Positions 33,862 to 58,374 are shown, counted from the stretch's first letter. The stretch: DNA of 64,000 bases from Candidatus Poribacteria bacterium (GCA_965214095.1 OZ243938.1:4832001-4896000); one strand, 5' to 3'. Numbers and translations: made by a program. The notes: generated from the letters alone by a model not told the origin.

Positions 33862-35938
33862 TTAATCTTCCCTTTCAATAATAGCGTGTTTAATACTACT
33901 CTTAAAGTGACTATCCTTACCTATAGCCATCCATCTTTTTGAGAAAAAATCCATAGCAACAGGAATGTTAGGGGTGTGATTGGAATCAACATCCTCTAAC
34001 CAATTTGTGTAAGTGAGGGGTTCCCCGTTTTCCCAATGCCAAGATGCTCCATCTTGTGTGGAACTTAACCCAATCCAATAAAACTTACTTTCAGCAAATC
34101 TACCTTCCAACCATCTCTGTTCATTTTCATTACTAACAGTGACCAGATATGCATTTTCTGATGCAGCTTTATTTTTTGCATCCTGCCAACTCTCACATTG
34201 AATTCTTTTGTAAGCATGTCCATTTTCAGGATTAACCGACCATATTGCTTGTCGGGCAATTATACGCTTTCTTATATTGTCTTGATTTCTCTGTGTGTCC
34301 TTCAGTCTAAATATGTGGACATCATTTTGCTGTCCAGGTTTTATCTTAAACCATCTGGATTTAACTTTTTCACCTTTGTATTCTATAGAGACATTATACT
34401 CAGTTGCCCATGCACGATAAGAGGCATCAAAATAACCTTGTGAATCTGTTTTTGCACTTCCACCTGAACTACCTCCACTTTGGCGTATGCTAAAGAAATA
34501 TAGAAATGTATCTCTATCTCCATTCTGTACAGTGAGTCTAAATTGTTCATTAGCAAGAGGAGTTTTGTCTTTTAAAAGTATCCTTCCCCTAATTCGCATT
34601 GGATATGGTTTTACGGTTACCACTGTATCTTCAAGTGGAATATCTGGCTCAATTGATATAGTTGGTTTACCAAACCAATACCCAAGATGTGTTGGACTAG
34701 GAGGATAATAGGTCAAATCTCTAACTTTAATTGATACGATCTTATATTCTGGTGTAGCTTCGGGGAGAATAACTAACTGCGATGACACTGCATCAATGTT
34801 AGAAAATGAAAATCCACCTTGTATATCGGTTATTGTACGTGTCCAGTTGGACAAAGGAATTCGCGGTACTACCTCATTTCTTTGATTAAATTCAATTGGT
34901 TTAATGTAAAGTTCCAGTCCTCGCACGACTTCACCATTTGTATCCACAACTACCCCCGATAATGATGTTTTTCCTTTATCAAGTAGATTATTTTGTATAG
35001 ATCTTTTTGCTGAATTTGTCTGATGTGGGTTGACATCAGAAACATTCGTATTCTGTGCAATTTCATTCTGCGTATTTGGATTATTGGCACGTCCAACCTG
35101 ATTTCGCACAGTTGGCTTCTCAGGAGAATCAATCACCTGTCTTGCATCTGTTATTTCAATCGTCCGTTCAGAGTCTGCGTCAATACTGTATGGCTCTTGA
35201 AAATGGATTAGTTGTTTTGCTCCAACACCGATCAATAGAAATACGATAATTGCTGATGCTGAAGAAACTATCCACGGCATTACCGGTTTACTTGCTGAAG
35301 GAGCTGCCGGAGATAAGTTGGAGATTTTTTGCATGATACTCTCAGATAACTGCTGTGGTAATTGGAAACTGCCTAAGTTTTCCTGAATAAGTGCTTCTTC
35401 ACCTTTGAGCCGATTGCGTGCGCGATGTAGACGAATCTTGACAGTATTTGTTGATACACCGAGGAATTCACCGATCTCTTCACACGATAAACCTGCAAGG
35501 TAATGTAGTGAGATGACAGTCCTATCACTCTCCTTTAGTTTGTTGAGCAACTTTTTGACAAGTGAACGTTGCATCTCTTTTCTTTCTTCCTCACGTTCAT
35601 TTGAGATAATCTGAATAATACACCTCTTCCAACTCCATAGGATCGGTTTGTTCTAAGGATTCTAACTGCGGCTTTTTCTTACGGTGCCACATTTTGCAGA
35701 TATTAGTCGTAATAACATATAACCAACCAGAGAAACGGTGGGGGTGTTTTAAACTGCTGAGTTTCTGATATGCAGTTATAAAAGCATCTTGTGTTATCTC
35801 TTCCGCAGTATGGAAATCACCAATCTTCTGCCATGCAAGCGTATGTATCTGTTCTTGATATTTTTCCACAAGCAATGCAAACGCTTGTTGATCCCCCGCA
35901 AGTGTTTGTTTGACCAGTTCAGAATCGCTTTGTTTCAT
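33862..35938 (-). pseudogene. Frameshifted membrane-tethered ECF sigma factor with extracytoplasmic C-type lectin (ECF-1)
   Basis: ORF 35597-35938 encodes sigma2. ORF 33862-35574 encodes sigma4, a TM, prealbumin-like repeats and a C-type lectin. The join reads TCA GAT TAT C TCA AAT GAA CGT GAG GAA, i.e. a frameshift near 35605 relative to the paralogues' YYSxY..xxREE. Confidence 0.85.
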
Positions 35939-35974
35939 TGTTGCACCTCACTATCTTTGTCTTCTTTTAACATA

Positions 35975-36003
35975 TAGATGCTAATTGGATATCAAAGGTT
36001 TCA
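35975..36003 (-). promoter_or_regulatory. Putative ECF-dependent promoter of ECF-1
   Basis: TGAAAC-N17-CATCTA, ending about 36 nt upstream of the ATG. Confidence 0.7.
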
Positions 36004-36051
36004 CTTTTGTATTATTTTCAAAAGATATTTACATCTGGATCAGTTCTATAA

Positions 36052-36187
36052 TATAGTAAAACCATAATTATTTATCCACTACGGTAGGTTTGGTTTCCTA
36101 ACCGAACCGGTGTTGTTCAGTCTCATAGATGCGGTTAGGAAACCGAACCTACCAGGGAGTGTGCACGTGTTTTTACATTTCACTATA
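36052..36187 (+). mobile_element. Family A MITE-like element
   Basis: tatagtaaaaccataattattt...REP pair...catttcactata. Confidence 0.85.
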
Positions 36188-36214
36188 ATGATAGCATAGA
36201 AATTGATAACTGAC

Positions 36215-36245
36215 AAAAAGAAAGGCACGCATGTTCTGCGTGCCT
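36215..36245 (-). terminator. Probable intrinsic terminator
   Basis: Stem aggcacgca/tgcgtgcct preceded by aaaaagaa. Confidence 0.6.
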
Positions 36246-36377
36246 AAAGGGTATTGTTGACTAAATTAGGGTTTACGTTTTAGGAGTATTGCTCTATGTT
36301 CAAACTAAATAATGCCATCTCTGTATTGGGTGTGCATGAGTACTGACATCAAAGTTTGCAGATAATCTCTGTTGTGA

Positions 36378-36659
36378 TTAAGTGACCTCTGCAGATTCAT
36401 CATCCATGGTTTCAGTATCAGTGCTATTTTTTCCAGTTGTATCGTTGTCCTCTGTATCATGAATCTCTATATGTTGGATTTCCTGACGATCTGTGTCTGA
36501 TGTTTCATCAATGGGTTGGGTAACCTCTCCTTGATTGCTATCATATATTTCTATGGTAGACATCTGAAATTGAAACCATACAAAACATCCGATTGTGAAA
36601 ATCAGTATAAATGCAGTTCCACCGACAATCCAGTTTTCTATTGAAAAATCTTTTAGCAT
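36378..36659 (-). CDS. Small single-TM protein with acidic tail (possibly truncated)
   Basis: GGGAGA RBS before MLKDF; TM WIVGGTAFILIFTIGCFVWF; Asp/Glu/Thr-rich tail. Confidence 0.5.
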   Translation of the reverse strand: MLKDFSIENWIVGGTAFILIFTIGCFVWFQFQMSTIEIYDSNQGEVTQPIDETSDTDRQEIQHIEIHDTEDNDTTGKNSTDTETMDDESAEVT

Positions 36660-36986
36660 AATGTTCTCCCTATTGTCCATTGTTCGTCCAGTCATCACTG
36701 GGAGTGAAACTATTGTTTTTCTCTTGGTTAATCATTAAGACAAATCAAACACTATTGTGTTCATTATAACTATATCAAATTAGTTGAAGTTTACAATCAA
36801 TTCTTTCAAACTTTTTGTGTCTCTGTAATTAAAGAGACATAACTTCGGAAAAAGGTTGCACTTTTTTACTAAAATATACAAATGAAGCAGAAAAAAGTTG
36901 CATATTGGTTGAAATTTATAGCAATTGCTGTGTTTGACGATCTGATGAAGTTGAACAAAAAGGGGTTTGAATCAGAACTGTGTGAT

Positions 36987-37089: not shown

Positions 37090-37176
37090 ATGAATCCTAT
37101 AGATGATTATGTTGAATTATCTCAAATATCTACCAAGAATAGGCTACAACATATCAGGTAGACAATTATGGACGAT

Positions 37177-40107
37177 TTATTTCTCAATCGGAATTTTATA
37201 CACCCCGCTACCGAAAGTGCCAGCGTAAAGAAAACCGTCAATTACTGCTAAGGATGAAACCTGCTGGGTAAGAGAACCAATCGACTTCCAATGCTGTTTC
37301 TCTTCTATCCATTGGAAAAAACCTGTAGGTGTGCTGACATACACTTCAGTACCATCAGTGCCTATTGATGTAGCAGATGTTTCATCCAGACCATCGTTGA
37401 TGGCTGTCCAAGTATCGCCTACATCCTTGGAGCGAAATACTCCCTTGTTCCAAGTGGTTACATAAAGCGTTGAACCAACCCTTTTGAGATCAGTCAAACC
37501 GCCATCAATCATTTCTGCTGTGTGAATAGGCTCCCAACGGTTTTCTTCAAAACGGTAGATTTCACTATCTCCAGTAACCGCAATCACATTCTCACTATTT
37601 GCAGATAATATCCAGATCCTGTGATGTTCCAAGCCAAGTTTGGTAAGACCCGTTCTCTGCTCCCACTTGAAGACAACACCATTCCATGCGCCCATATAAA
37701 ATGTATTGCCAACTACATCCATACTTACAATTCCATACAAGTCAATATCTGTGAAAAGTTTAACCAAAGTGTTATTTTCTCTATTCAACCTGTAAACACT
37801 ATCACCCTCACGACCTGAATAAGGCGGAATATATTTGTCATCACCAAAGTAAGCAGCGATGTAGAGCTCACCATCTGATACACAAATGTCTAGAACACCA
37901 CGTTTGCTCTGCTTTGAAGGATCGTTTATAGACAGCCATGTATCTCCACCGTCAGCAGAATAGACAATTTTTTTACCAACAACAGTGTATAGTTTATCAC
38001 CAATAACCTCTAATTTGCTGACAGATGTATTTATTATGCCAGTGTTGCATTCTACCCAAGAATCCCCTGCATCTGTTGTGCGAAAGACCCCATTTCTTGA
38101 TGTGCCTATGAAGACAGTATTATCATTGATTGGTAACACAGTTGAAACATCATCATGCATTACCCCCTCATTGATTGGTATCCAGGAATCACCCATATCC
38201 TCCGAAAGATAGATCAAACCGTCATTAGTGCCGGCGTAGAGCCTTTCGCCTTGCCCGGCAATTGTCCGAACGCGATCACTTTCTTCTTTTACTTTTTCTG
38301 GGGTGATGAACGTCCATGTGTCGCCTGCGTCATTTGACCGGAAGATCCCAGTTTCTTTTCCCATAGATCCACTCATAAAAAGTAAATGTTTCATTGAAGC
38401 AAACGACTTAACATGAAAATCAGATGAAGAATGTTGCTTAAGTGAAGGATTTTGCTTAGGTGAAGAATTTGATCCTGGTTTATCTTGTGAATTGTTTTCT
38501 GACTCGACCCCATCTGAATCCTCAACGACAACTGGATTGGTAAGTGTCCACGTGTCTTCATTCACTGTTCTGCGAAAGAGTCCTTTTTTTGTAGCAGCAA
38601 CCAACGTTGTCCCATGACTTGAGAGGCTAAAGACATTCCTCTGTGTAAGAATCGATTCTACATCCTTGCGATTATGAATCAGACGCGGGTCGTGCCCGAA
38701 GAGAAGACCAGGGAACTTTGTTCCGAGTCCATCATTGATTTGTGCCCATGAATTACCATCATTTGACTGCCAAAAACCGTAGATCCCAGTACTAACGTAG
38801 ATATGCTCATCAAGAATAACTATGTCAAGAATATCAATGGCACTGATCAGCCCAGGGACTCGGAACGCAGATACGGGTTGCCAGGTGTTGCCAATATCAG
38901 TAGAAATGTATAATCCATCCCGCGTTCCAACATAGATCTTATTCCCCTTTTCAGCGAATGAAGTAACAAATGCAGAAATATACTTCAATCGTCCTCTATT
39001 GATTAATCCAGTATTAACTGGTGTCCAGTTGTTTCCATTATCAGTTGAGCGAAAAATACCTGCCTTCTCTGTCCCCGCAAGGAGCACCCCATGAGTGGTT
39101 TTATAAAGCGTTGTTATCTCACCACCGTAAGGACCATTCGTTTGTTTCCATGTGCCTTTGAAATTAGTTCTTTCAGTATCATCCGTCTGTGCTGCACCAA
39201 ATAGTGATGTCCCGGGTTCCTGTCCCGTTCCATCATTGTTACTGAGCACATCAGAACGACGAACTTGATTGTTAATTGTTGGTTTGGCAGGGGTTTCCAA
39301 GACCAATCGTGCGTCAACGATTTCAACTGTTCGTTCAGATTGTGCAGTCAAACTAAACGGCTTCTGAAACCGAATTAGGTTTTGTGCTCCAAAGCCTATT
39401 AGTAGAACAACTAAAATGGCTGAGACAGCAGATATTGCTAAAGGTACTAAAGGTTTACTTCCTGATGGCGTTACTGGATTGAGACGTGATATTTCCTTCA
39501 TGATGTTTTCTGTCATTTGTGTTGGCAGTTGGAAACTGCTAAGGTTTTCTTGTATCACTGCTTCCTCCTTCTTTAACCGCTCTCTGGCTCGGTGAAGTCG
39601 ACTTTTAACCGTGTTCGGAGATACACCCAAAAACCTACCAATCTCTTCACACGTTAAGCCTGCGAGGTAGTGCATTGTTACCACTGTCCGTTCACTCTCG
39701 CGGAGTTTATCGAGTAACTTCCGAACAATTGCTCGACGATTTTGATTCGCTGCTTCTTCACGTTGACGAGACGTATGGTCGGAATAATATACCTCTTCTA
39801 ATTCCATTGGGTCTGTCTCCTCCAGAGATTGCAGTTGTGGCTTTTTCTTTCGGTGCCACATGTTACACTTGTTACTGGTTATGACATAGAGCCATCCCGC
39901 AAATCGGTTGTGATGTGTGAGGGTTGCGAGTTTTTGATACGCAGTGACGAAGGCATCTTGTGTAATCTCTTGTGCAATGTGGAAATCACCAATTTTCTGC
40001 CACGCCAAAGCGTGTATCTGTTCTTGGTATTTTTCTACAAGTGCAGCAAAGGCGTGTTGATCACCTTCAAGTGTACGTTCAATCAATTCAGCATCATTAT
40101 GTTTCAT
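37177..40107 (-). CDS. Membrane-tethered ECF sigma factor with extracytoplasmic BNR/Asp-box beta-propeller (ECF-2)
   Basis: sigma2 (AFAALVEKYQ...ITQDAF...FAGWLYVI), sigma4 (LTCEEIGRFLGVSPNTVKSRLHRARERL), TM LAISAVSAILVVLLIGFG, then many SxDxGxTW Asp-boxes. GAGGTG RBS before MKHND. Confidence 0.9.
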   Translation of the reverse strand: MKHNDAELIERTLEGDQHAFAALVEKYQEQIHALAWQKIGDFHIAQEITQDAFVTAYQKLATLTHHNRFAGWLYVITSNKCNMWHRKKKPQLQSLEETDPMELEEVYYSDHTSRQREEAANQNRRAIVRKLLDKLRESERTVVTMHYLAGLTCEEIGRFLGVSPNTVKSRLHRARERLKKEEAVIQENLSSFQLPTQMTENIMKEISRLNPVTPSGSKPLVPLAISAVSAILVVLLIGFGAQNLIRFQKPFSLTAQSERTVEIVDARLVLETPAKPTINNQVRRSDVLSNNDGTGQEPGTSLFGAAQTDDTERTNFKGTWKQTNGPYGGEITTLYKTTHGVLLAGTEKAGIFRSTDNGNNWTPVNTGLINRGRLKYISAFVTSFAEKGNKIYVGTRDGLYISTDIGNTWQPVSAFRVPGLISAIDILDIVILDEHIYVSTGIYGFWQSNDGNSWAQINDGLGTKFPGLLFGHDPRLIHNRKDVESILTQRNVFSLSSHGTTLVAATKKGLFRRTVNEDTWTLTNPVVVEDSDGVESENNSQDKPGSNSSPKQNPSLKQHSSSDFHVKSFASMKHLLFMSGSMGKETGIFRSNDAGDTWTFITPEKVKEESDRVRTIAGQGERLYAGTNDGLIYLSEDMGDSWIPINEGVMHDDVSTVLPINDNTVFIGTSRNGVFRTTDAGDSWVECNTGIINTSVSKLEVIGDKLYTVVGKKIVYSADGGDTWLSINDPSKQSKRGVLDICVSDGELYIAAYFGDDKYIPPYSGREGDSVYRLNRENNTLVKLFTDIDLYGIVSMDVVGNTFYMGAWNGVVFKWEQRTGLTKLGLEHHRIWILSANSENVIAVTGDSEIYRFEENRWEPIHTAEMIDGGLTDLKRVGSTLYVTTWNKGVFRSKDVGDTWTAINDGLDETSATSIGTDGTEVYVSTPTGFFQWIEEKQHWKSIGSLTQQVSSLAVIDGFLYAGTFGSGVYKIPIEK

Positions 40108-40142: not shown

Positions 40143-40171
40143 AAGATGTTATTTGCCTTATGAAGGTTGCA
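40143..40171 (-). promoter_or_regulatory. Putative ECF-dependent promoter of ECF-2
   Basis: TGCAAC-N17-CATCTT, about 35 nt upstream of the ATG. Confidence 0.7.
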
Positions 40172-40256: not shown

Positions 40257-40360
40257 GGTAGATGCGGTTTCCTAACCGCATCTATGACACTGAACAAACA
40301 CCGGTTCGGTTAGGAAACCGAACCTACCGTAGTGTGAAAATAATTATGATTTTTACTATA
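40257..40360 (-). mobile_element. Family A MITE-like element, reverse orientation, one end degenerate
   Basis: Reverse complement of the family A REP pair, ending in ...taattatgatttttactata. Confidence 0.8.
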
Positions 40361-40442: not shown

Positions 40443-40473
40443 AAAGAAGAAAGGCGCGCTTGGAAGCACGCCT
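40443..40473 (-). terminator. Possible intrinsic terminator
   Basis: Imperfect stem aggcgcgctt/aagcacgcct with an A-rich left flank. Confidence 0.45.
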
Positions 40474-43650: not shown

Positions 43651-43842
43651 GAGAAAGTTTCCCCCAATTTTGTCATTAACAGGACTTACGCAATAATGTT
43701 TGACATAGGCTCGCCAAAACACTAATATGGTGTGCAAGGAAGTAGATAAAATGAGGAATGTGTATAAATAATTTAATTCAGATTTTCGTTCCAATAAGTA
43801 ACCATCGTCAGGTATACTCCTCATGGTGAACCGTGATTCTCT

Positions 43843-44850
43843 TTATTCCGTCATACGTTCAGCTTGTTTCAACCGCCCCCAAAGGGTTGTCTGGGTGTCC
43901 ACAGTCGGAGAAACGGAGAAAAAACTTCCGGGGACCCAGGCGGGAGAAGAATTTCGCACAGGATCTTGTGTGATTTGCCGTGGCTCGCCCCCTTTGACAG
44001 AAACGATAAAAATATGTCGCACCGCATTCGGGTTATCCGGAGGATTCGCAATTTCTGCATCGTAGGCATCGTAGGCAATCCACTTACCATCACGGGACCA
44101 CGCAGGATTGTCACTCCAAAACCCAAGACGTGAAATGCGGCGGGCGTTTTGTCCATCTGTATCCATGATGTAGATATCATTCCCATCCCCATCATTACCG
44201 ACACAAGCAATCTGTTTTCCATCAGGTGACCAAGCAGGATTTAAACAAGGTCCGACTCCATGTAGCAGCTTTATAATCTGTCGGGGATGTTTTCCATCTG
44301 CGTCCATCACATAGATACCGCTACCGACACCGCCAGAACCGAAAGCAATTGATTGCCCATCTGGAAACCAGGCTGGGGTAAGGTTGAATTTTCCTTGGTT
44401 AGTCAGTCTCTGTAGATTATTGCCGTTGATATCTATTTTGTAGATATGATATTCCCCTGTTCTCTCGGCTACAAAAGCGATCCAATCTCCATCAGGTGAC
44501 CAGGCAGGAGAAAAAGCTGACCATACAGGATCAAAATCGTTTTCTGGACGTGTTGTCAACCGACGCGCCTGAGCTTCATTGAATTTCTGAATATAGATAT
44601 CAAAATTTCCATCACGGTTCGACGCAAAAGCAAAAGAACGCCCATCTGGTGCCCACGTTGCACCAGTGTCGTCTGCGGGGTGGTTTGTTAGGTTGCGTAG
44701 ATTCTCACCGTTTGTATCAACAATGTAGATGTCAGTTTGCCCTGTACGGTTAGAATGGAAAGAAATATACTGAGCTCCCCAAGTGTTTACGGTAAGCAGA
44801 AACAAACTGAGCAGTAATGTCATTCCAAACAACATATAGGTGCGTTTCAT
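43843..44850 (-). CDS. Secreted TolB-like (PD40) beta-propeller protein, copy 1
   Basis: Repeated PAWSPDG..IAF.S.R.G..DIY.MD.DG units; tail FSVSPTVDTQTTLWGRLKQ. Confidence 0.88.
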   Translation of the reverse strand: MKRTYMLFGMTLLLSLFLLTVNTWGAQYISFHSNRTGQTDIYIVDTNGENLRNLTNHPADDTGATWAPDGRSFAFASNRDGNFDIYIQKFNEAQARRLTTRPENDFDPVWSAFSPAWSPDGDWIAFVAERTGEYHIYKIDINGNNLQRLTNQGKFNLTPAWFPDGQSIAFGSGGVGSGIYVMDADGKHPRQIIKLLHGVGPCLNPAWSPDGKQIACVGNDGDGNDIYIMDTDGQNARRISRLGFWSDNPAWSRDGKWIAYDAYDAEIANPPDNPNAVRHIFIVSVKGGEPRQITQDPVRNSSPAWVPGSFFSVSPTVDTQTTLWGRLKQAERMTE

Positions 44851-47589: not shown

Positions 47590-50500
47590 TTACTGATCCG
47601 TTGAATCGTCAAGTAAAAAACGTAACACACCCCGTTCTCTTGTTCCTACATAAAGCGTATTCCCATCAACATCAAGACATGTAATAGTATATGCGATATA
47701 ATGCGGAATTTTCGGAGTAATTTGTTCCCACATAGTCATACCACTTTTCACTTGAAATATTCTTCTCTTTGCTTCCCCGTAAACCGTTGTCCCTTCCGCA
47801 GCAAACATATTAATAATAAGCGGTTTTCCTTTTGCACCGGTGAGTGTGTACCAATCAGTTCCATTAGTTGACATCACAACACCTTTATCGGTTGCAACAT
47901 AGACAAAGTCACCTGCAAAAGTTATTGCTTTGTAATGATCTACAGGATATGGAAGGTTTCCTGTAACATCACTCCATGTCATGCCTTCATCAAGAGATTG
48001 CATCAGTTGACCTTCTTTTTCTCCAACGTAAATTGTGTTTCCAGACACAGCAAATCTAAATCCAACGGCATCTATATATGGATTATTTGCATAGCAAAAA
48101 GTCCTATCTTCACTAACCCCTTTATCTAATAACCCCGTATTGATCCATTCGGTATTACCCGGTTTCCATCTAAAGAGTTGATAGTTGTATTCAACATAAT
48201 ATGTCCCATTGATAACAGCAAGACCACCAAGCTGCGATTCAGAGAACGAACCGTCCCCATGCGGCACATTTCGTGCCATAAAACCGGTAGGACGATTTAA
48301 TTGAAGGTTTTCCTTCCGCCGATCAATTTTGTCTAAAATTGGCATTTCAGACACTTTGATGAGACTATTGTCTTGAGTGGAAAGACGGAAAAAACAAGGT
48401 GCACCTAATTTATCGTCTCTCACGAAAATTTCTCCATTGGATTCCATAATACGTGTGATAAAACCTGTATCACCATTAACAAGTGTCCAAGATTCGCCTT
48501 TGTCAGTTGAATGGACAAATCCATTTGCCGAATTGGCGTAAAGAGTGCCGTTGACAGCAATCAATTGCCAAACTTCTGTATTTACGAGTCCGGTATTGAA
48601 TTGATCCCACGATTTACCACCATCTGTTGTGCGATGTATCCCGTAGTTTCCGCTTCTGTAGTAGGTGTCCTCATTTACCGTAACTATTGCAAAAGCATTT
48701 CCTAGATCCACTGTGTCTTCGGTTTTCCATGTTTTACCAGAATCTGACGAATAGTAATGTTTCTTTTGATCTACAAGCATTAACTTATTTTCTGTTACGG
48801 TAATTTTTAATGGACTGTATCCTGTTGACTTATGTGGTGATTTAGTATCTTCTTTCTTAATGTCTTTTTTGCCCTTTGAAGTCCCATTCAATAAATTGAT
48901 TGTTGATAGTTCCTCTTTATCTGTATTATCTTTTCTCGGCGTAATATTCCTCCATGTTTTTCCATGATCAGTTGATTGGAACAGTGCCCATGACAAATCT
49001 GTTGCTGCTTGTGCACGAAAGATTTCACGTCGTAAGGACCAAGGAGTCTCCCGTAGTTCTACATAGGAATCACGAGTGATTGCATGTATGGGTTTTCCAC
49101 CTCTACCTAGAAACACTCGAAAACTATTATCAATATGATAACTTCTGGCAACATAGAGAAAGTTGTCTTTCACTTCCATAGATATTATAGGCAAATATGT
49201 ACTTTTTTCACCTATTTCATCAAGGAATATCTGTTCCCATGTGTTTCCATTCAGACGATAGAGTCCTTTATTGGTACCGACATAGACAGTGTTATCTATA
49301 ACAGCAATTGCACGAGGTTGAACGCTTGGGTATTTATTATCAAATGGTGTCAACCGAACCCATGATGCACCATTATCCTCTGAACGGTATACACCGTTAT
49401 CACCAGAATAGGTAACTTCATCAACAAGACACAGATAGAATGCTTGATCCAGAATCGTCATATCGATAAGTCCACCTCCAGGATGCTCAGAGAATGTTTT
49501 CCATGTTTTCCCTCTATCCGTTGATCTCAGGATTTTTTTGTCTGTGGCAAGATACAGTATACCGTCTTTTTCAACCATTGGTCCGGATCGCATGCCGCTC
49601 AATTGTTCTTTATCTGAGAATATATCACGTGAGTAGATAAGATTCCACGCTGCAGCGTCATCTGTGAGTTTATAGATTCCGCGTGGTGTACCTGCAAATA
49701 CATCTTCATCAACTGTTGCATAGAGATTGACGACTCTTCCCCCTACAGGTCCATTTGTTTCGTTCCATTCTCCTTTCTTATCTGAAATACCTTCTTTCTC
49801 TTGTGATGCAGCAAATTGAGATGTCCCCGGTTCCTGTCCTGTGCCATCATTGTTACTAAGTTCATCAGAACGACCAACCTGATTACTAATTGCTGGTTTA
49901 GCAGGGGATTCCAAGACTAATCGTGCGTCAACGATTTCAATCGTTGGTTCGGATTGTGCAGTCAAACTAAAAGGCTTCTGAAACCGACTTGGGTTTTGTG
50001 TTCCAAAGCCTATTAGTAAAACAACTAAAATGGCTGAGACAGCAGATATTGCTAACGGTATGAAGGGTTTGTTAGCAGTTGGTGCCGCTGGCATAAGTCG
50101 TGACACCTTTTCCATGATGTGTTCTGTCATTTGGGTTGGTAGTTGGAAACTGCCCAAGTTTTCTTCAATTATTGCTTCCTCCTTCTTTAGTCGGTTGCGT
50201 GCGCGATGAAGTTTACTCCGAACCGTGTTCGGAGACATACCCAAAAACTTACCAATCTCTTCACATGGCATTTCTGCGATGTAATATAAATTTACTACTG
50301 TGCGGTCACTCTCTTGCAGTGTACTGAGTAATTTCTGAACTATGCCACGTCGTTTTTGATTTGCTGCTTCTTCGCGTTGATGTGTCATATATTCTGAATA
50401 ATACACCTCCTCTAATTCAACAGGATCAGTTTCTTCTAATGATTGGAATTCTAACCTGCTCTTTCTGAACCAATTCTTGCACTTGTTATCTGCAATGACA

Positions 50501-50721
50501 TATAACCATCCCGAAAGGCGGTTATGGCGTTTGAGTGTAGAAAGTTTGTGATACGCAGTGAGGAACACATCTTGTGTGATTTCCTGAGCAATATGGAAAT
50601 CACCGATTTTCTGCCACACCAATGCGTGTATCTGTTTTTGGTACTTTTCGACAAGTTCAGAAAACGCTTGCTGATCACCAGTTATGGTTTTTTGAATCAG
50701 ATCAGAATCTGAGTTATTCAT
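47590..50721 (-). CDS. Membrane-tethered ECF sigma factor with extracytoplasmic BNR/Asp-box beta-propeller (ECF-3)
   Basis: Same sigma2/sigma4/TM layout; RSTDRGKTW, RSEDNGASW and QSLDEGMTW Asp-boxes; GAGGTG RBS before MNNSD. Confidence 0.9.
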   Translation of the reverse strand: MNNSDSDLIQKTITGDQQAFSELVEKYQKQIHALVWQKIGDFHIAQEITQDVFLTAYHKLSTLKRHNRLSGWLYVIADNKCKNWFRKSRLEFQSLEETDPVELEEVYYSEYMTHQREEAANQKRRGIVQKLLSTLQESDRTVVNLYYIAEMPCEEIGKFLGMSPNTVRSKLHRARNRLKKEEAIIEENLGSFQLPTQMTEHIMEKVSRLMPAAPTANKPFIPLAISAVSAILVVLLIGFGTQNPSRFQKPFSLTAQSEPTIEIVDARLVLESPAKPAISNQVGRSDELSNNDGTGQEPGTSQFAASQEKEGISDKKGEWNETNGPVGGRVVNLYATVDEDVFAGTPRGIYKLTDDAAAWNLIYSRDIFSDKEQLSGMRSGPMVEKDGILYLATDKKILRSTDRGKTWKTFSEHPGGGLIDMTILDQAFYLCLVDEVTYSGDNGVYRSEDNGASWVRLTPFDNKYPSVQPRAIAVIDNTVYVGTNKGLYRLNGNTWEQIFLDEIGEKSTYLPIISMEVKDNFLYVARSYHIDNSFRVFLGRGGKPIHAITRDSYVELRETPWSLRREIFRAQAATDLSWALFQSTDHGKTWRNITPRKDNTDKEELSTINLLNGTSKGKKDIKKEDTKSPHKSTGYSPLKITVTENKLMLVDQKKHYYSSDSGKTWKTEDTVDLGNAFAIVTVNEDTYYRSGNYGIHRTTDGGKSWDQFNTGLVNTEVWQLIAVNGTLYANSANGFVHSTDKGESWTLVNGDTGFITRIMESNGEIFVRDDKLGAPCFFRLSTQDNSLIKVSEMPILDKIDRRKENLQLNRPTGFMARNVPHGDGSFSESQLGGLAVINGTYYVEYNYQLFRWKPGNTEWINTGLLDKGVSEDRTFCYANNPYIDAVGFRFAVSGNTIYVGEKEGQLMQSLDEGMTWSDVTGNLPYPVDHYKAITFAGDFVYVATDKGVVMSTNGTDWYTLTGAKGKPLIINMFAAEGTTVYGEAKRRIFQVKSGMTMWEQITPKIPHYIAYTITCLDVDGNTLYVGTRERGVLRFLLDDSTDQ

Positions 50722-50856: not shown

Positions 50857-50885
50857 TAGACACCTTTTTGAGGATGAAAATTGCA
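50857..50885 (-). promoter_or_regulatory. Putative ECF-dependent promoter of ECF-3
   Basis: TGCAAT-N17-TGTCTA, displaced about 100 nt from the gene by the MITE. Confidence 0.68.
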
Positions 50886-50999: not shown

Positions 51000-51728
51000 T
51001 CAATGCGTGAGTGTATAAACAATAGCATTTATACCCATTTGAAATGCCATGTCTGAGAACTTACGAGGATAGTAAGGCTCTGCTGCATTCTGCCATGCAT
51101 CTCCTAAGTCAGTATTGAAGTTTATCATCATCATAATTCGACCATGGTCATCAAAGACACCCATGCATCGTACGTCAAAACCATCCTTTTCATGTGTTCT
51201 TCCTGCACGATATGCTGCAGGGGCGGGGATTTGCATCAGACTCTTAATTTCGTAGAAGCAGTCAAAGAGAGGGTGTGACATCGGTATATCTCTCGGTTCG
51301 CGTTTTGGGAATATTTTCTTGTATTGTTTATAAAATCTTTTCCACTGTTCTGTTCCGTGAAAATCATCTGTCATGATAAAACCACCACGCAAAAGATATT
51401 CGCGGAGATTGGCAGCTTCTTTTTTCGAAAGGTTAAGTCTACTCAATTCTGCGATATATGCAAAAGGATAGTCAAAAAGTTCAGATGAACCTACCTCAAT
51501 TATAGTTTCTTGTGGACTTGCTTTTATGTTTGTCTGTTTGCGAAGTTGAGTAAGTAGGTTTCGGTCTGCAGCGGGGTAGTCTATATCCCATAGACTCTTA
51601 TACCGAAAACTACCATTATATTTCAATCGGACAAAGGTAAAATCGTATAGTGACTCATCACCGATGGAATCTGGATTGATGAATAGAGCAAAGGTTATTA
51701 TAATAAGTGTGATTGGTATATGTTTCAT
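51000..51728 (-). CDS. DUF4159 domain protein (Sec signal)
   Basis: FTFVRLKY, WDIDYPAADRNL, LREYLLRGGFIMTDDFHG, NTDLGDAW and MGINAIVYTLTH motifs. Confidence 0.88.
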   Translation of the reverse strand: MKHIPITLIIITFALFINPDSIGDESLYDFTFVRLKYNGSFRYKSLWDIDYPAADRNLLTQLRKQTNIKASPQETIIEVGSSELFDYPFAYIAELSRLNLSKKEAANLREYLLRGGFIMTDDFHGTEQWKRFYKQYKKIFPKREPRDIPMSHPLFDCFYEIKSLMQIPAPAAYRAGRTHEKDGFDVRCMGVFDDHGRIMMMINFNTDLGDAWQNAAEPYYPRKFSDMAFQMGINAIVYTLTH

Positions 51729-51864: not shown

Positions 51865-54800
51865 CTATTTGTCAAGTGCGTAACGAAGTACACCGCGCCC
51901 TCTTGTTCCTACATAAAGGGTATTTACATCAACATCAAGACATGTAACCAGATAGGGAATTTTGGGTGTGACTTGTTGCCACATAAGAATATCACTGTTT
52001 ACCTTGTATATCATATTCTTTGCTTCACCGTATACCGTTGTCCCATCCACTGTAAACATTGTAATAATAAGTGGTTTTCCTTCTTCATCAGTGATTATTT
52101 GCCAATCAATACCGTCGCTTGATCTAATAACACCTTTGTCCGTTGCTACATAGACAAAGTTGTCAGCTAAAACTATTGCCTTGAAATGATCTACAAAATA
52201 TGGTAGGTTTTCTGATACATCGGTCCAAGTCAGTCCTTCATCAAGAGATTGCATCAGTTGCCCTTCTTTTTCGCCGACGTAAATTGTGTATTCAGACACT
52301 GCAAATCTAAATCCTACAGCATCTATAAATGAATTATTTGCATAGCAAAAAGACCTATCTTCACTAACCCCTTTATCTAATAACCCCGTATTGAACCATT
52401 CGGTATTACCCGGTTTCCATCTAAAGAGTTGATAGTTGTATTCAACATAATATATTCCATTAATAACAGCAAGACCGCCAAACTGCGATTCTGAGAAGAG
52501 ACCGTTACCATGGGATATATTTCGTCCCATAAAACCGGTAGGACGATTTAATTGAAGGTTTTCCTTCCGCCGATCAATTTTGTCTAAAATTGGCATTTCA
52601 GACACTTTGATAAGACTATTGTCTTGAGTGGAAAGACGGAAAAAACGAGGGGCACCTAATTTATCGTCTCTCACGAAAATTTCTCCATTGGATTCCATAA
52701 TACGTGTGATAAAACCTGTATCACCTTTAACAGGAGACCAAGTTTCACCACCATCGCTTGAATTGACAAATCCATCTATCGAATTAGCATACAGATTACC
52801 ATCAACAGCAATCAATTGCCAAATATCTGTAGCTACAAGTCCGGAATTAAATTGATTCCATGATTCACCACCGTCTGTCGTGCGATGTATCCCGTAGTTT
52901 CCGCTTCTGTAGTAGGTGTCCTCATTTACCATAACTATTGCAGAAGCATTTCCTAGATCCACTGTGTCTTTGGTTTTCCAGGTTTTCCCAGAATCTGACG
53001 AATAGTAGTGTTTCGTTTGATCTACAAGTGTAACATTGTTTCCTTTTACACTAATTTTTAATGGACTGTATAATAATTTATGTGAGGCTTTAGTTTCTTT
53101 ATTCTTTGTGTCTTTTTTGTCCGGTGAAATCACTTTCATTAAATTTACTATGGACAACTCCTTTTTATCTGTATTGTTTTTTCTCGGTGTAATTTTTTCC
53201 CATGTAGTCCCATGATCACTTGATACGAAAAGTTCCCAAGACAAACCTTTTGCTGCCCTTGGGTGCATGATGGGTGTATTCTCGAGAATCGAACGAAAGC
53301 CAATATCAATATGATAACTTCTGGCAACATAGAGAACATTATCAATAACTTCCATAGATATAATTGGTAAATATGTACTTTTTTCACCTATTTCATCAAG
53401 GAATATTTCCTCCCATGTATTTCCATCAAGCCGATAGAGTCCTTTATTTGTGCCGACAAATACCGTGTTTTCTATAACAGCTATCGCACGTGGTTCAATG
53501 TTTGGATAATTCTTGTCAAAAAGTGTCAGACGATTCCAAGATGCACCATTATCATCTGAACGGTATACACCGTTATCTTCAGAAAAGGTAAATTCATCGG
53601 AAAGACACAAGTAAAATGTATCGTCAAGAATCACTATTCCAATAAGTCCACCGCCTGGATGGACAGAAAATGTGTTCCATGTCTGTCCTCTATCTTTGGA
53701 TGACAGGATTTCTCTATTTGATACAAGATACAAGATACCGTCTCTTTCAACCATTGGACCGGATGGCATGCCACTCAATTGTTTTCTATGTGAGAATATA
53801 TTTCGATGGTTAATAAGTTCCCACTTACTTTTATCATCTGAGAGTCTGAAGATACCACTATGTGTTCCTGCAAATACATCTCCATCGTTTGTTGCGTAGA
53901 GATTAGCAACAACTCCACCAACAGGCCCCTGAGTTTGTCTCCATTGTCCTTTCTTATCTGATGTGCCATTATCCTCTTGTGATGCAGCATTACGTGTTGT
54001 GTCAGGATTATGTCCAGTGTTATTGCTATTATTGGTTATATTTGTAAATCCAACTCTGTTTTTAACTGTAGGTTCTGTTGGAGATTCTAAGAAGATTGGA
54101 ACGTCAACGATTTCAATAGTTGATTCAGATGCAGCCTCTAAACTATACGGTATTTGGTAACGATATAAGTTTTGCGTACCCACACCCATCAGTAGAAAGA
54201 CGAATATAGCAGAGACAGCAGATACTGCGAACGGGACAAATGGTTTGGGTGCAGTTGTAGGTGATGGTTTTAGTTGTGATATTTTCTTCATAATGTTTTC
54301 TGTCATTTGAGTTGGCAGTTGAAAACTATTTAGGTTCTCTTTTATCATTGATTCTTCCTTCTTCATTTTGTTTCGTGCCCGGTGTAGTCTACTTCTAACA
54401 GTGTTAGGAGATACTCCCAGAAACTTACCGATTTCTTCGCATGTCATTTCAGCAATGTAATACATTGTTACGACTGTTTTCTCACTTTCTTGCAGCTTGC
54501 TTAGCAGTTTTCGTACTAATGCTCGCTGTTTTCGATTGGCAGCTTCTTCGCGTTTACTGGTCATATAATTGGAATAATATACCTCCTCTAATTCAACAGG
54601 ATTAGTCGTTTCTAACGATTGTGGCTGCGGTTTTTTCTTTCTGTGCCACGCAATACATTTGCGATTGGTAATCACATAGAGCCATCCAACAAAGCAATTA
54701 TGGTTAGTAAGTGTGGCAAGTTTTTGGTATGCTGTAAGGAACGTATCTTGTGTAATCTCTTGAGCAATATGGAAATCACCAATTTTTTGCCATGCCAGTG

Positions 54801-54897
54801 CATGTACCTGTTTTTGGTATTTATTTACAAGAGTAGCAAAGGCTTTCTCATCACCGTCTAATGTGTGTTGAATCAGTTCAGAATCATCGTTTTTCAT
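51865..54897 (-). CDS. Membrane-tethered ECF sigma factor with extracytoplasmic BNR/Asp-box beta-propeller (ECF-4)
   Basis: sigma2/sigma4, TM FAVSAVSAIFVFLLMGVG, then Asp-box repeats; GAGGT RBS before MKNDD. Confidence 0.9.
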   Translation of the reverse strand: MKNDDSELIQHTLDGDEKAFATLVNKYQKQVHALAWQKIGDFHIAQEITQDTFLTAYQKLATLTNHNCFVGWLYVITNRKCIAWHRKKKPQPQSLETTNPVELEEVYYSNYMTSKREEAANRKQRALVRKLLSKLQESEKTVVTMYYIAEMTCEEIGKFLGVSPNTVRSRLHRARNKMKKEESMIKENLNSFQLPTQMTENIMKKISQLKPSPTTAPKPFVPFAVSAVSAIFVFLLMGVGTQNLYRYQIPYSLEAASESTIEIVDVPIFLESPTEPTVKNRVGFTNITNNSNNTGHNPDTTRNAASQEDNGTSDKKGQWRQTQGPVGGVVANLYATNDGDVFAGTHSGIFRLSDDKSKWELINHRNIFSHRKQLSGMPSGPMVERDGILYLVSNREILSSKDRGQTWNTFSVHPGGGLIGIVILDDTFYLCLSDEFTFSEDNGVYRSDDNGASWNRLTLFDKNYPNIEPRAIAVIENTVFVGTNKGLYRLDGNTWEEIFLDEIGEKSTYLPIISMEVIDNVLYVARSYHIDIGFRSILENTPIMHPRAAKGLSWELFVSSDHGTTWEKITPRKNNTDKKELSIVNLMKVISPDKKDTKNKETKASHKLLYSPLKISVKGNNVTLVDQTKHYYSSDSGKTWKTKDTVDLGNASAIVMVNEDTYYRSGNYGIHRTTDGGESWNQFNSGLVATDIWQLIAVDGNLYANSIDGFVNSSDGGETWSPVKGDTGFITRIMESNGEIFVRDDKLGAPRFFRLSTQDNSLIKVSEMPILDKIDRRKENLQLNRPTGFMGRNISHGNGLFSESQFGGLAVINGIYYVEYNYQLFRWKPGNTEWFNTGLLDKGVSEDRSFCYANNSFIDAVGFRFAVSEYTIYVGEKEGQLMQSLDEGLTWTDVSENLPYFVDHFKAIVLADNFVYVATDKGVIRSSDGIDWQIITDEEGKPLIITMFTVDGTTVYGEAKNMIYKVNSDILMWQQVTPKIPYLVTCLDVDVNTLYVGTRGRGVLRYALDK

Positions 54898-54934
54898 GTG
54901 AGACCTCAATAGCAAAATGATACTTTAAAATATA

Positions 54935-54963
54935 TAGACGCGATTTTTGAAGCAATAATTGCA
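54935..54963 (-). promoter_or_regulatory. Putative ECF-dependent promoter of ECF-4
   Basis: TGCAAT-N17-CGTCTA, about 37 nt upstream of the ATG. Confidence 0.7.
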
Positions 54964-55195: not shown

Positions 55196-55276
55196 ATGCA
55201 TAGTAGTAGGCACACTCCGTGTGCCGTCAAAATGTGAACGGGTTACGGCACACGGAGTGTGCCTACTACTATGCAT
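55196..55276. repeat. Perfect 32-bp inverted repeat (REP doublet) with 17-nt spacer
   Basis: atgcatagtagtaggcacactccgtgtgccgt ... acggcacacggagtgtgcctactactatgcat. Each arm is itself a GTAG-headed hairpin. Confidence 0.85.
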
Positions 55277-55461
55277 CGCTTTATACTGATATGTGAACAA
55301 ATGTGTCAGAATTCCATAAAACTAAATATCCCTGATTTTCAGGATAAATTCTTGACAGTTAAATGGTATTGGATAGATATTAACTTCAATGCATCAGTTT
55401 TGGAATTGAAATCATCTTTTTACAATACAATTCAGTTGAAGAAATGTCTATTTTGAAACTC

Positions 55462-58374
55462 CTATTTGTCAAGTGCGTAACGAAGCACACCACGTCCAAA
55501 AGTTCCAACATAGACGTTACTCCCATCAACATCTAAGCATGTAGCGGAATATGGGATTTCTGGAGTAACTTTTTTCCATGTGCTAAGTTCCTCTTTTAGT
55601 TGATAGATAGTATTCTTTGCTAAGCTATACAATCTATTTCCATCAACATCAAACTTTATGACTTCAAGCGGTTTTCCTTCAATGTCTGGGACTGTTTTCC
55701 AATCTATCCCGTTGTTTGATCGTATAACACCCTTATCAGTTCCGACATATACATTCTGTTCAAGATAGGTAATGTCATGGAAAATCTCAACTGAGAATGG
55801 CAGGTTTTCAGTAACATTGTTCCAGGTATCACCTTCATCAAAGGATTGTAGGAGTTGACCGACTTGTTTTCCTACATATAAGGTCTTTCCTGAAACTGCA
55901 AGTTCAAAATTTGGGTTATATACCATCCTATCGTTGTCTTCATACTTTAATGAAGTAATGTACCATTCAGAAGTACCCGGTTTCCACCTCAATAACTGGT
56001 TTCTGAACTCTACATAGAATGTTGAATTACTGACTGCATAATTTGAGATCCTATCGGGTTCTTTAATTTCAACTCGTTGTAAGGAAGTGTCATCAATATC
56101 AACAGACAACTGAGGAATAGGATACGTATCAATTTCAATCCAATCAGAGTCATTAGACATCATTAATTTTGGCATGTCTTGAATATTCATTAGTTCATTT
56201 TCTTCATCTGAAAGACGCAAAATTGGATTATTTCCTTCAGATACATAAAGAACTCCATTATTGTCAACCATCAGACTATCACTATACTCATACAATGCAA
56301 CAGGTTCCCAGGACTTTCCATAGTCCATTGACGCTAAGATACCTTTATTTGCGACTCGAACATAAAGAATCTTATTCATAGATACGACATCCAATACCAT
56401 AGTTGCTATCAGACCAGCATTGAATTGATGCCAGTTCTTCCCTTCCTCTGTAGTTCTATAAATTCCCTGATAACCTGATTTATAGAAAGTATTTGAGTCA
56501 TATACTAATATACTCATAGTGCTGTATACTAAAGTTGAGTTAATTAAGTCCGGTAAAATCCAGTTTTCCCCGCCATCATTCGAAATATAATGATATCTAC
56601 CATCCACTAATAATATTTTGTCATCTTGAGCTGCGATTCTTGCCCCAATCCCACTTCCCATAGATCTCAAATGTGAGTCCTTATCTCTTGGATCTATACA
56701 ATCCCAAGTATTGCCATTGTCATTAGATTTATAGACAGTCCATCCCTTATGACTCAACATCAAGATTTTAGAATCCTTACTGACTGCAAAATTGTTTTCT
56801 TGACCTGTTACAACATAAATATGCTTTTCGGTTGCTACCATATCAAGGATTGAATCGTCTTTAGCATCTGCTTCTGGTGTTACAGACATAAATTCCCATT
56901 TCTCGTTATCATATCGGAACAATCCATCATCGGTACCGACAAAAACTGTGTTTTTAATGGCTGCGATAGAGCGGATTTTCCTATCTGTCAAACCTACTGA
57001 CAGTTCGATCCAAGTCTTACCCGTGTCAATTGATCGGAATACTGCATCGTGAAACGCAAGATAAATCGTAAGATCACTTTTTGAATCTGGAAGTCCATCT
57101 GCAAGTATCATGCCTATAGGTGTTCCCTCTTTTGACTTGCAGAAAAACTTCCATGTTTCTCCTCTATCTGTTGAAACCAATATCTCTGTGTCGTTTGCAA
57201 GATAAAGGTGTTCATACCTTTCTACAACAGGCCACCATAAATAACGTCTAATTTCACCGTGATAAATTGGACCCTCAATATTGTTAATAAGTTCCCATGC
57301 CGACCCATCATCATTCAGTCTGTAAAGTCCGTTTCGTGTTCCTGCAAAAACGTCTCCGTTTGTAGTTCTAAACAATGAAGGGACAGTTCCACCTTCCGGT
57401 CCTGTTGTTTGTACCCACTTCTGTTTTACGTTTGAGACCTCTGTCTGATCCTGTTGTGCTGCGGTAAAAAGAGAATCCTCAGAATTCAGTCCAATACCAT
57501 TGTTTTCGGTTGGTATGCTGGATTCACCAACACGGTTTCGACTTATTGGTTCTGTTTGAGATTCCACAAAATTTCGCACATCAACTATTTCAATCATAGA
57601 CTCAGACGATGCATCTATGCTATAAGGGGTTTGGTACTGATGTAACTTCATCGCACCTACTCCCATCAACAAAACTACAAAAATTGCAGAGGCAGCAGAC
57701 AAAACCCACGGAACGAATGGTTTACTGATAGGTGTAGTAGTCGGTGTCAGTTGTGATATTTTCTTCATAATGTTTTCTGTCATTTGTGTTGGCAGTTGGA
57801 AACTGCTTAGATTTTCTTTTATCATTGCTTCTTCCTTTCTCAATCTGTTACGTGCACGACTAAGTCGGCTTCTGATTGTATTTGAGGATACACCAAGAAA
57901 TTCACTAATTGAGTCACAAGACATTTCTCCAAGATAGTGAAGTGTCATCACTGTTCGTTCACTTTCTGGTAGCTTCTTCAGTAGATTTTGGACTAATTCC
58001 CTTCGTGCATCATCTGCATCTGCTTCCTGTTGCTCTTCAACATAAAATGTATATGCCACTTGGTCCACCTCTTTACTATCAACTGTCTCTATGGATTGTA
58101 TCGGTATACGTTTCTTTCTACACCATTTATAACATAGACGTGTGGCAATAACGTAAAGCCATCCAGAGAATAGATTATGATTCTTCAATGTTCCGAGTTT
58201 TTGGTATGCCTTGAGAAATGCATCTTGTGTGATTTCTTGGGCAATATGAAAATCACCTATTTTCTGCCATACCAGTGCATGAACACCTTTTTGGTATTTT
58301 TCAACTAATGTTGTAAATGCTGTTTGGTCACCGTCTAATGTTCGTTGAATCAATATGGAATCTTTATTCTTCAT
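55462..58374 (-). CDS. Membrane-tethered ECF sigma factor with extracytoplasmic BNR/Asp-box beta-propeller (ECF-5)
   Basis: sigma2/sigma4, TM WVLSAASAIFVVLLMGVG, Asp-box repeats, and the same C-terminal GVLRYALDK as ECF-4. Confidence 0.9.
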   Translation of the reverse strand: MKNKDSILIQRTLDGDQTAFTTLVEKYQKGVHALVWQKIGDFHIAQEITQDAFLKAYQKLGTLKNHNLFSGWLYVIATRLCYKWCRKKRIPIQSIETVDSKEVDQVAYTFYVEEQQEADADDARRELVQNLLKKLPESERTVMTLHYLGEMSCDSISEFLGVSSNTIRSRLSRARNRLRKEEAMIKENLSSFQLPTQMTENIMKKISQLTPTTTPISKPFVPWVLSAASAIFVVLLMGVGAMKLHQYQTPYSIDASSESMIEIVDVRNFVESQTEPISRNRVGESSIPTENNGIGLNSEDSLFTAAQQDQTEVSNVKQKWVQTTGPEGGTVPSLFRTTNGDVFAGTRNGLYRLNDDGSAWELINNIEGPIYHGEIRRYLWWPVVERYEHLYLANDTEILVSTDRGETWKFFCKSKEGTPIGMILADGLPDSKSDLTIYLAFHDAVFRSIDTGKTWIELSVGLTDRKIRSIAAIKNTVFVGTDDGLFRYDNEKWEFMSVTPEADAKDDSILDMVATEKHIYVVTGQENNFAVSKDSKILMLSHKGWTVYKSNDNGNTWDCIDPRDKDSHLRSMGSGIGARIAAQDDKILLVDGRYHYISNDGGENWILPDLINSTLVYSTMSILVYDSNTFYKSGYQGIYRTTEEGKNWHQFNAGLIATMVLDVVSMNKILYVRVANKGILASMDYGKSWEPVALYEYSDSLMVDNNGVLYVSEGNNPILRLSDEENELMNIQDMPKLMMSNDSDWIEIDTYPIPQLSVDIDDTSLQRVEIKEPDRISNYAVSNSTFYVEFRNQLLRWKPGTSEWYITSLKYEDNDRMVYNPNFELAVSGKTLYVGKQVGQLLQSFDEGDTWNNVTENLPFSVEIFHDITYLEQNVYVGTDKGVIRSNNGIDWKTVPDIEGKPLEVIKFDVDGNRLYSLAKNTIYQLKEELSTWKKVTPEIPYSATCLDVDGSNVYVGTFGRGVLRYALDK

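Follow-up and report, generated by a model that had tools for sequence, protein, structure and literature searches.

Extracytoplasmic function (ECF) sigma factors that are anchored by transmembrane (TM) helices and extended beyond the cytoplasm are already described, namely IutY and the groups ECF48, ECF52 and ECF53 (PMC8999054). In that source, IutY of Pseudomonas putida (ECF243) is presented as a sigma/anti-sigma hybrid that is cleaved by Prc and RseP and is constitutively active when truncated, and proteolytic activation is predicted for ECF52 (SCO4117), ECF48 and ECF53 of Actinobacteria. Here we analyse an array of five ECF sigma factor genes in a 64,000-nucleotide (nt) stretch of Candidatus Poribacteria DNA (GCA_965214095.1 OZ243938.1:4832001-4896000; the whole stretch is termed the window, and coordinates are counted from its first letter), which a preliminary description had proposed to be membrane-tethered, one-component receptors of what may be a signalling system not yet characterised. 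These genes belong to a conserved and well-defined family; whilst TM-anchored, fused ECF sigma factors are known, the lineage-specific modular version found here, which contains no zinc-finger or FecR anti-sigma domain, has no description in the literature searched, so that the claim of novelty stands for this family but not for TM-anchored extended ECFs as such. That literature yielded no description of ECF sigma factors in Poribacteria, nor of ECFs with BNR extensions; a passage of PMC6081418 mentions a sigma factor antagonist resembling an uncultured Acidobacterium.

Like IutY, each array protein combines in one chain an N-terminal ECF sigma domain, a single TM helix and a C-terminal part that is expected to be extracytoplasmic. 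IutY, however, includes a complete FecR-type anti-sigma portion and takes its signal from a TonB-dependent receptor, whereas in the array proteins only about 40 residues link sigma4 to the TM helix, neither FecR nor any other anti-sigma model matches, and a large sensor of their own lies outside. The fusion of an ECF sigma domain to TM helices and an outside carbohydrate-binding part is a likeness to ECF52, ECF48 and ECF53, but in those groups, which come from another phylum, a zinc-finger (ZAS-like) anti-sigma domain is accompanied by a proline-rich region, and neither of these was found in the array. ECF57, the former ECF01-Gob, may resemble the array family in its long propeller-repeat C-terminal extensions and its cysteine pair, and likewise occurs in several copies per genome. 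This group of Planctomycetes averages 5.3 copies per genome (PMC7826278), and its WD40-like C-terminal extensions are filed under 'protein interaction', with two cysteines possibly linking sigma2 to sigma4 (PMC8999054). The array differs from ECF57 in phylum, in its sensors, which are Asp-box propellers and a lectin, and in its second cysteine, C153, which is present in only 51 of 131 representatives; ECF57 is nevertheless the most likely relative, and the array family may be kin to it or a new branch of it.

Among sigma factors of solved structure, SigW of Bacillus subtilis is the nearest by sequence and is close in fold, and its promoter (TGAAAC-N16-CGTA) is similar to those of the array; RsiW, which is removed by regulated intramembrane proteolysis, is by contrast a separate protein with a zinc anti-sigma domain, and the array does not reach the SigW equivalog cut-off. 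The SigI-RsgI systems of Clostridium thermocellum and Bacillus resemble the array in forming paralogous sets, several per genome, with a conserved juxtamembrane unit and varied outside polysaccharide sensors, and signal by site-1 cleavage followed by a site-2 protease; they differ in that the sigma-I-type sigma and the anti-sigma are separate, and in that the folded SEA-like domain of RsgI cuts itself at Asn-Pro. An RsgI-type Asn-Pro is not conserved in the post-TM motif of the five array copies, a segment of about 40 residues that is predicted to be disordered.

Architecture and distribution of the array family

The array spans positions 33862-58374, part of a run of minus-strand genes, and consists of five minus-strand paralogues, here called copies A to E, whose ATG starts (35938, 40107, 50721, 54897 and 58374, respectively) align across the copies and agree with those first reported. 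Four copies are intact, namely copy E (55462..58374, 970 amino acids, aa), copy D (51865..54897, 1010 aa from the ATG), copy C (47590..50721, 1043 aa from the ATG) and copy B (37177..40107, 976 aa from the ATG), the last of which was used for modelling; copy A is split into two open reading frames (ORFs) by a frameshift, so that the description of five one-component genes is correct for four of them. The Pfam models Sigma70_r2 and Sigma70_r4_2 match all five copies and lie, in the four long ORFs, at about residues 23-95 and 126-184, with Sortilin-Vps10, BNR and PSII_BNR matches in the C-terminal two thirds. Behind the sigma domain, every copy contains the helix ENLxSFQLPxQxxExIM (ENLxSFQLPTQMTENIM in the four long ORFs), a hydrophobic segment rich in SAxSA, and the post-TM motif QxP(F/Y)S..A.SE..(I/V)EI.D, followed by a polar linker; copy E, ending in a tandem propeller, typifies the architecture of copies B, C and D. 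One strongly hydrophobic 19-residue span is found in each copy at about residues 220-242 (Kyte-Doolittle mean 2.2-2.7), with one extra, weaker span further on in copy B. Sigma4 ends at about residue 181-186, leaving only about 35-40 residues before the TM segment starts at about residue 220, and 330-800 residues of propeller or lectin domains lie beyond it. The architecture and its single TM segment are established by Pfam, motif alignment and hydropathy, as the preliminary description had it. Identity to copy B amounts to 58-72% over the N-terminal 292 residues and 36-41% over the full lengths. The sensor would lie outside the cytoplasmic membrane, because the sigma domain must reach RNA polymerase in the cytoplasm and there is a single TM segment; the sensors, initially called extracellular, would on this basis be better termed extracytoplasmic, and periplasmic if a two-membrane cell is assumed.

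The helix, TM segment and post-TM motif together form a module that was placed by hydropathy and motif at 57517-57852 (copy E), 54040-54375 (copy D), 49864-50199 (copy C), 39250-39585 (copy B) and 35083-35418 (copy A), all on the minus strand, and was represented by a profile of 112 positions. The module is rare: among 1.84 billion cluster representatives the profile finds 264 matches at E<=1e-3 and 209 at E<=1e-10. Relatives of the full-length protein run into the thousands, 7672 of 8000 scored candidates passing E<=1e-3. Where the profile matches full-length proteins, the module starts at about residue 175, always directly behind the sigma domain, and the elements LTxNIM, KPxxPW, LxxG and QxLxRFQxPYSxxAxSExTxE are kept in at least 70% of the 150 representatives listed. 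All six relatives for which the source gives a taxon are Candidatus Poribacteria sigma-70 family proteins. Compared with PDB sequences the module profile found nothing significant (best E 0.26), and Atlas look-alikes of residues 180-300 scored 0.81 and 0.76, under the useful range. Stand-alone anti-sigma relatives of the module were considered and rejected: short or offset matches begin at internal methionines or after garbled sequence, and therefore look like fragments or frameshifted calls.

A scan of GTDB, taking one genome per species and two strict peptide patterns from the module, returned 138 stretches, of which 115 were confirmed, and the best 80 of these gave 57 loci of 20 kb. Fifty-five of the 57 loci are titled Poribacteria and the other two 'uncultured bacterium'. 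The module family is thus seen almost only in Poribacteria, although its absence elsewhere is not proven because the patterns were strict. Counted across these loci with a hidden Markov model of the module, homologues number 140 matches, or about 130 distinct genes on 47 contigs and in about 35 assemblies (by accession prefix); each locus holds one to five, nearly all on one strand, and tandem arrays are therefore the rule. The earlier proposal of an expanded, lineage-restricted repertoire of single-polypeptide receptors is borne out by this distribution, by the variety of sensors and by the lack of separate anti-sigma genes. The closest relatives of the window, loci L001 and L002, share 83-96% nucleotide identity with it over syntenic blocks, and their arrays differ from that of the window, which means that copy number and integrity vary between close genomes; in L001 (9451-11107, 12727-15754) the copy B counterpart is shortened to 552 codons, and an extra B-like paralogue comes after it.

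Sensor and sigma domains

Sensor domains were surveyed in 55 of the 150 representatives listed, selected for a module at about residue 175 and for atypical length, a choice that is biased against the common propeller type of about 1000 aa. Within this sample WD40 was recognised in 14 proteins, Sortilin/BNR in six, CarboxypepD_reg and/or Lectin_C in five, LRR_4 in three and GHL15 in two, with one each of Kelch, Reg_prop, Laminin_G_3, Redoxin, Transglut_core and Trypsin_2 with TPR; no domain was recognised in 19, and the sigma models matched in at least 49. At least 11 kinds of sensor domain are found attached to this one fixed module. The WD40 extension, which recalls ECF57, occurs in those 14 surveyed representatives; in the window copies four sensors are Asp-box propellers and one bears a lectin, as first claimed and as Pfam indicates; Reg_prop reached only 17.8 bits in the window sensors, against a cut-off of 20.4.

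A full-length model of copy B, built from a 66-row alignment, has a mean predicted local distance difference test (pLDDT) score of 68.7, with the propellers, which form a tandem pair, at 80-92 and residues 185-316 (helix, TM segment and post-TM motif) under 50. The top Foldseek match of its sensor is to the Bacteroides periplasmic sensors BT4663 and BT4673 (E 1.6e-20), which likewise place a glycan-sensing tandem beta-propeller outside the membrane; the global superposition is however poor (TM-score only 0.23-0.29), and their output is a kinase and regulator rather than a sigma factor. GH74 xyloglucanases, whose family is characterised by two seven-bladed propellers and a catalytic aspartate pair in the cleft, were also matched, with a TM-score of about 0.5 on the target and 14-16% identity. 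The modelled sensor would accordingly be a tandem propeller of the glycan-binding kind, resembling both glycan-sensing and glycan-cleaving propellers.

When residues 1-292 of copy B were modelled separately (56 rows), sigma2 and sigma4 reached pLDDT 86-92 and short helices were predicted at residues 182-190 and 198-208, residues 181-210 scoring 77-84. In its arrangement of sigma2 and sigma4, the N-terminal model superposes best on sigmas complexed with anti-sigma factors, namely CnrH of CnrH-CnrY (TM-score 0.68, root-mean-square deviation (rmsd) 4.5 Å), followed by SigW of SigW-RsiW (TM-score 0.63), and deviates from holoenzyme sigmas by an rmsd of 22-28 Å. The model hints that the two helices may inhibit the sigma domain in cis, as a minimal counterpart of the short class II anti-sigma peptides. 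A complex prediction pairing sigma residues 1-182 with the segment 183-222 gave a score of 0.06 (mark 0.32), which delivers no verdict and was used neither way.

The sigma domains are assigned by sequence to the ECF (group 4) sigma-70 family. The superfamily model TIGR02937 (NCBIfam) scores 92-103 bits on the four intact copies against a cut-off of 42.9, and is the only one to pass its own cut-off for these domains; the SigW equivalog models, the best of the specific ones, fall short (NF007223, 102-119 bits versus 209; TIGR02948, 91-107 versus 243). SigW is the nearest solved sequence (E 8.5e-25). A look-alike search with residues 1-250 retrieved only generic ECF clusters from many phyla. The motif WQKIGDFH(I/T)A(Q/E)EITQD, which had been thought to stand in place of the usual sigma2 motif, is indeed present, but it aligns column by column with SigW GNVHEAEDIAQEAF and is for that reason a variant of the usual motif, not a replacement. 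Two cysteines, C81 in sigma2 and C153 in sigma4, occur in all five window copies; in the close family C81 is invariant and C153 at least 90% conserved, and among module-family representatives C81 is kept in 111 of the 115 with a residue there and C153 in 51 of 131. PF25852 is annotated on many relatives and was absent from the Pfam scan made here.

The absence of an adjacent anti-sigma gene, as originally noted, was upheld: none of 40 ORFs of at least 100 aa scanned across the window matches an anti-sigma family, and such ORFs as lie between the array genes are short and implausible, with no credible small gene among them. Between sigma4 and the TM helix, Pfam gave no match to FecR, zf-HC2/ZAS or RskA at E<=0.01.

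Promoters and proposed mode of activation

The five upstream regions align on the pattern TG(C/A)AA(C/T)-N17/18-(C/T)(G/A)TCT, behind which stands a GAGG ribosome site. The promoter-like motifs, all on the minus strand, are TGCAAC-N18-CGTCT for copy E (58412..58440, its -10 end 38 nt before the ATG), TGCAAT-N17-CGTCT for copy D (54936..54963, 39 nt), TGCAAT-N17-TGTCT for copy C (50858..50885, 137 nt, with an element resembling a repetitive extragenic palindrome in between), TGCAAC-N17-CATCT for copy B (40144..40171, 37 nt) and TGAAAC-N17-CATCT for copy A (35976..36003, 38 nt). ECF promoters typically have AAC in the -35 box and CGT or GTC in the -10 box, and the array boxes resemble them. The window contains nine motif matches against 1.96 +/- 1.44 in simulated sequence, a count that alone proves little because five of the nine are the array promoters by construction. 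Amongst relatives, the motif is present in 75 of 117 distinct upstream regions, a number inflated by the shared descent of orthologues, and in 74 of these 75 its end lies 35-40 nt ahead of the predicted start. Over 1.93 Mb, with both strands counted and family sites included, the background amounts to 0.026 matches per 290 nt; the spacers vary from one paralogue group to another, but the two boxes are retained. Beyond the family upstream regions there are four further matches in the window and 84 unique ones in the window and 57 loci together, most of the 84 being a recurring coding stretch within family genes. Scans for sigma-70-type promoters and terminators gave counts not above those of shuffles (64 versus 54.6 +/- 7.8, 42 versus 38.2 +/- 5.9, 16 versus 12.4 +/- 3.5 and 14 versus 8.1 +/- 2.8). 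Two strong terminator-like hairpins that resemble each other (36223-36245 and 40452-40473, minus strand), each of nine pairs, six of them G-C, with a T-rich tail, stand shortly before the copy A and copy B promoters and are predicted to separate transcription units.

Four promoter classes can be distinguished, each tied to one sigma clade and all represented in the window: TG(C/A)AAC-N17-CATCT (24 genes; copies A and B), TGCAAC-N18-CGTCT (16 genes; copy E), TGCAAT-N17-CGTCT (21 genes; copy D) and TGCAAT-N17-TGTCT (16 genes; copy C). Residue 83, in the last sigma2 helix beside the near-invariant C81, carries 1.87 of the 1.98 bits of promoter class information. A sigma-residue-to-promoter 'code' was nevertheless rejected: on a sigma tree built without columns 82-83 the four classes need three changes, the minimum possible, and the correspondence is inseparable from shared descent. 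With only three changes on the tree, the link between sigma and promoter is one of clade-level co-divergence and no statistical proof of a code.

We infer tethered-form inactivity, proteolysis, a ligand and a regulon for these proteins as follows. The N-terminal ECF sigma domain (residues 1-180) would reside in the cytoplasm, held at the membrane by the conserved two-helix segment of about 40 residues and the single TM helix, with the sensor outside the cytoplasmic membrane and joined through the conserved juxtamembrane motif, likewise of about 40 residues, and the disordered polar linker. In this tethered form the protein would be inactive, the tether and perhaps the two helices restraining the sigma domain where no separate anti-sigma is available. 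A signal at the sensor, probably a glycan or other macromolecule, would lead to a first cleavage near the juxtamembrane motif and then to a second, by a site-2 protease, within the TM helix, which is rich in small residues (Ser/Ala/Gly). The freed sigma would transcribe from the ECF-type promoters that precede each family gene, and activation of its own promoter would bring positive feedback and expression of downstream genes in the same transcription unit. That the cassette stays the same while the sensors are unrelated is in keeping with a shared machinery for processing or transmission. By analogy with IutY, SCO4117, ECF48/53, RsgI and RsiW, this combination of membrane-tethered receptor, proteolytic release and own-promoter activation is the most likely reading, and we give it an even chance of being correct.

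Several observations weigh against it. The analysis turned up no protease gene, no cleavage motif and no degron, and a site-2 protease is absent from the window; with only some 35-40 residues between sigma4 and the TM segment, and no match to an anti-sigma model, a classical mode of sigma inactivation is not evident. The TM helix and post-TM motif fall under pLDDT 50 in both models, and the compact conformation of the sigma domain may simply reflect the structures known to AlphaFold, since ECF sigmas have mostly been solved in complex with an anti-sigma factor and the compact state may be favoured as a result. On the promoter side, to the inflated count of upstream motifs must be added that the motif was found before no different gene family in the window or the 57 loci, and that at two copies it overlaps weak sigma-70-like matches (9 of 12).

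The lack of any anti-sigma domain or protease would also be expected if the sigma domain were never released and instead recruited RNA polymerase whilst anchored, the sensor switching it by a conformational or oligomeric change passed through the module. ToxR and CadC bind DNA at the membrane in this way, the helix, TM segment and post-TM motif are conserved as a block whatever the sensor, as would be expected of a transmission device, and a tether, though a short one of about 40 residues, does exist. We nonetheless regard this as unlikely: we know of no sigma factor that works membrane-bound, and the post-TM motif and linker, being predicted to be disordered, offer a poor basis for mechanical coupling. 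Moreover, the fused examples that have been studied need processing, the truncated IutY being constitutively active (PMC8999054). An outside chance should be allowed to control mainly within the cytoplasm, of the type proposed for ECF57, with C81 and C153 forming a disulphide or metal lock and the propellers serving as protein-interaction platforms rather than as proteolytic switches triggered by a ligand. Such a cysteine pair is described together with WD40-like extensions for ECF57 (section 3.5.2 of PMC8999054), both cysteines are present in all five window copies and conserved in the close family, and C81 adjoins residues 82-83, which track promoter class; the pair cannot, however, be a general switch, given that C153 is retained in just 51 of 131 representatives, and a lock of this kind leaves the conserved TM and post-TM module unexplained.

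It is very improbable, finally, that the array is decaying duplicated DNA, or an artefact of annotation or assembly, with no signalling role. Copy A is frameshifted, seven of the 117 relative ORFs that no locus end truncates break off ahead of the module, and truncated forms are common in the protein database; against this, four copies are intact over about 1000 codons, the other 110 of the 117 have an open frame from their predicted start, about 35 assemblies preserve the start codons, promoters and module, and the propellers model confidently. The observations can also be joined into a broader and distinctly tentative picture of plug-and-play receptors, built by Poribacteria on the sigma factor itself. 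Here a fixed cassette of sigma domain, two-helix cis-inhibitor of the CnrY/NepR type, TM helix and cleavage or transmission motif would accept at least a dozen outside domains, many of them eukaryote-like (WD40, LRR, Kelch, C-type lectin, laminin-G); four ancient clades would possess private promoter variants, read partly by residues 82-83, and the tandem arrays would be self-amplifying circuits, insulated from one another, that report different host or environmental macromolecules.

Copy A, neighbouring genes and significance

The two pieces of copy A lie in different reading frames, the first (35597..35938, minus strand) being a 113-aa ORF with sigma2 only, terminated by the frameshift, and the second (33862..35574, minus strand) a 570-aa ORF with sigma4, helix, TM segment, post-TM motif, prealbumin-like repeats and a C-type lectin. 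Pfam matches the sensor to Lectin_C at 45.5 bits (cut-off 22.6); the prealbumin-like repeats reported for this copy correspond to a match to CarboxypepD_reg, which at 28.7 bits remains below its cut-off of 32.3. Two syntenic relatives, about 89-91% identical in nucleotide sequence over copy A and up to 96% in other blocks, contain an intact counterpart of 702-707 codons, and relative to both of these the window copy has a 2-nt gap in the linker between sigma2 and sigma4. The frameshift may mark either a real pseudogene or an assembly error. Three nt downstream lies a further minus-strand gene (32416..33858), likely co-transcribed with copy A, whose product has an N-terminal hydrophobic segment but no sigma domain or module; it is a paralogue of the copy A sensor (32% identity over 346 aa, E 4e-46) and matches Lectin_C at 44.3 bits (cut-off 22.6). 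At the downstream end of the cluster is a 1134-aa ORF (28702-32106, minus strand) with only a weak C-terminal helix-turn-helix of the AbiEi_4 type (23 bits, cut-off 25).

The array is neighboured by two PD40 propeller proteins, a WD40 protein, a DUF4159 protein and proteins without a family, and the presence of Era and UvrA at the right end of the window indicates a chromosomal setting. Between copy B and the hairpin at 36223-36245, a minus-strand ORF of 106 aa (36378..36698) encodes one hydrophobic segment and an acidic tail, has no family match and is possibly co-transcribed with copy B. The PD40 (TolB-like) propellers at 43843-44850 and 46411-47421 (minus strand), within the array and downstream of copy C, are paralogues with identical first 57 residues. 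Large WD40 proteins are encoded on the minus strand at 41428-43824, 3595-6534 and 502-3024; the repeats of the first are near-identical, which accounts for spurious long antisense ORFs (42013-43345, plus strand), and its C-terminal end may be a sorting domain. DUF4159 proteins (minus strand) are found directly downstream of copy D (51000-51728) and beside OmpA-like and VWA genes (19738-20613). A homologue of the WelO5-like halogenases and two PhyH-family dioxygenases, one of the latter divergent from copy E, are encoded at 6649-7497, 7575-8432 and 58593-59393. A palindromic intergenic repeat with the core GGTTAGGAAACC has 25 matches (at most two mismatches) against 3.8 +/- 1.9 in shuffled sequence, for example at 36092-36144, 40266-40319, 19537-19645 and 60833-60954, often in hairpin-like inverted pairs about 40 nt apart; a degenerate copy is located between the promoter and start of copy C.

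Poribacteria are an uncultured phylum known mainly from sponges, and the cassette, promoter classes and sensor repertoire provide concrete handles for experiments. The family amounts to a natural experiment, in which the transmission cassette is invariant, many different sensors are swapped in, and sigma and promoter come in four matched variants; it could show how a sigma factor stays inactive without a classical anti-sigma domain and could supply synthetic biology with orthogonal sigma/promoter pairs that take an external input. Should the family prove to be a poribacterial branch of ECF57, the promoter and module data would give that untested group checkable predictions. For the organisms themselves, it could indicate which macromolecules Poribacteria monitor.

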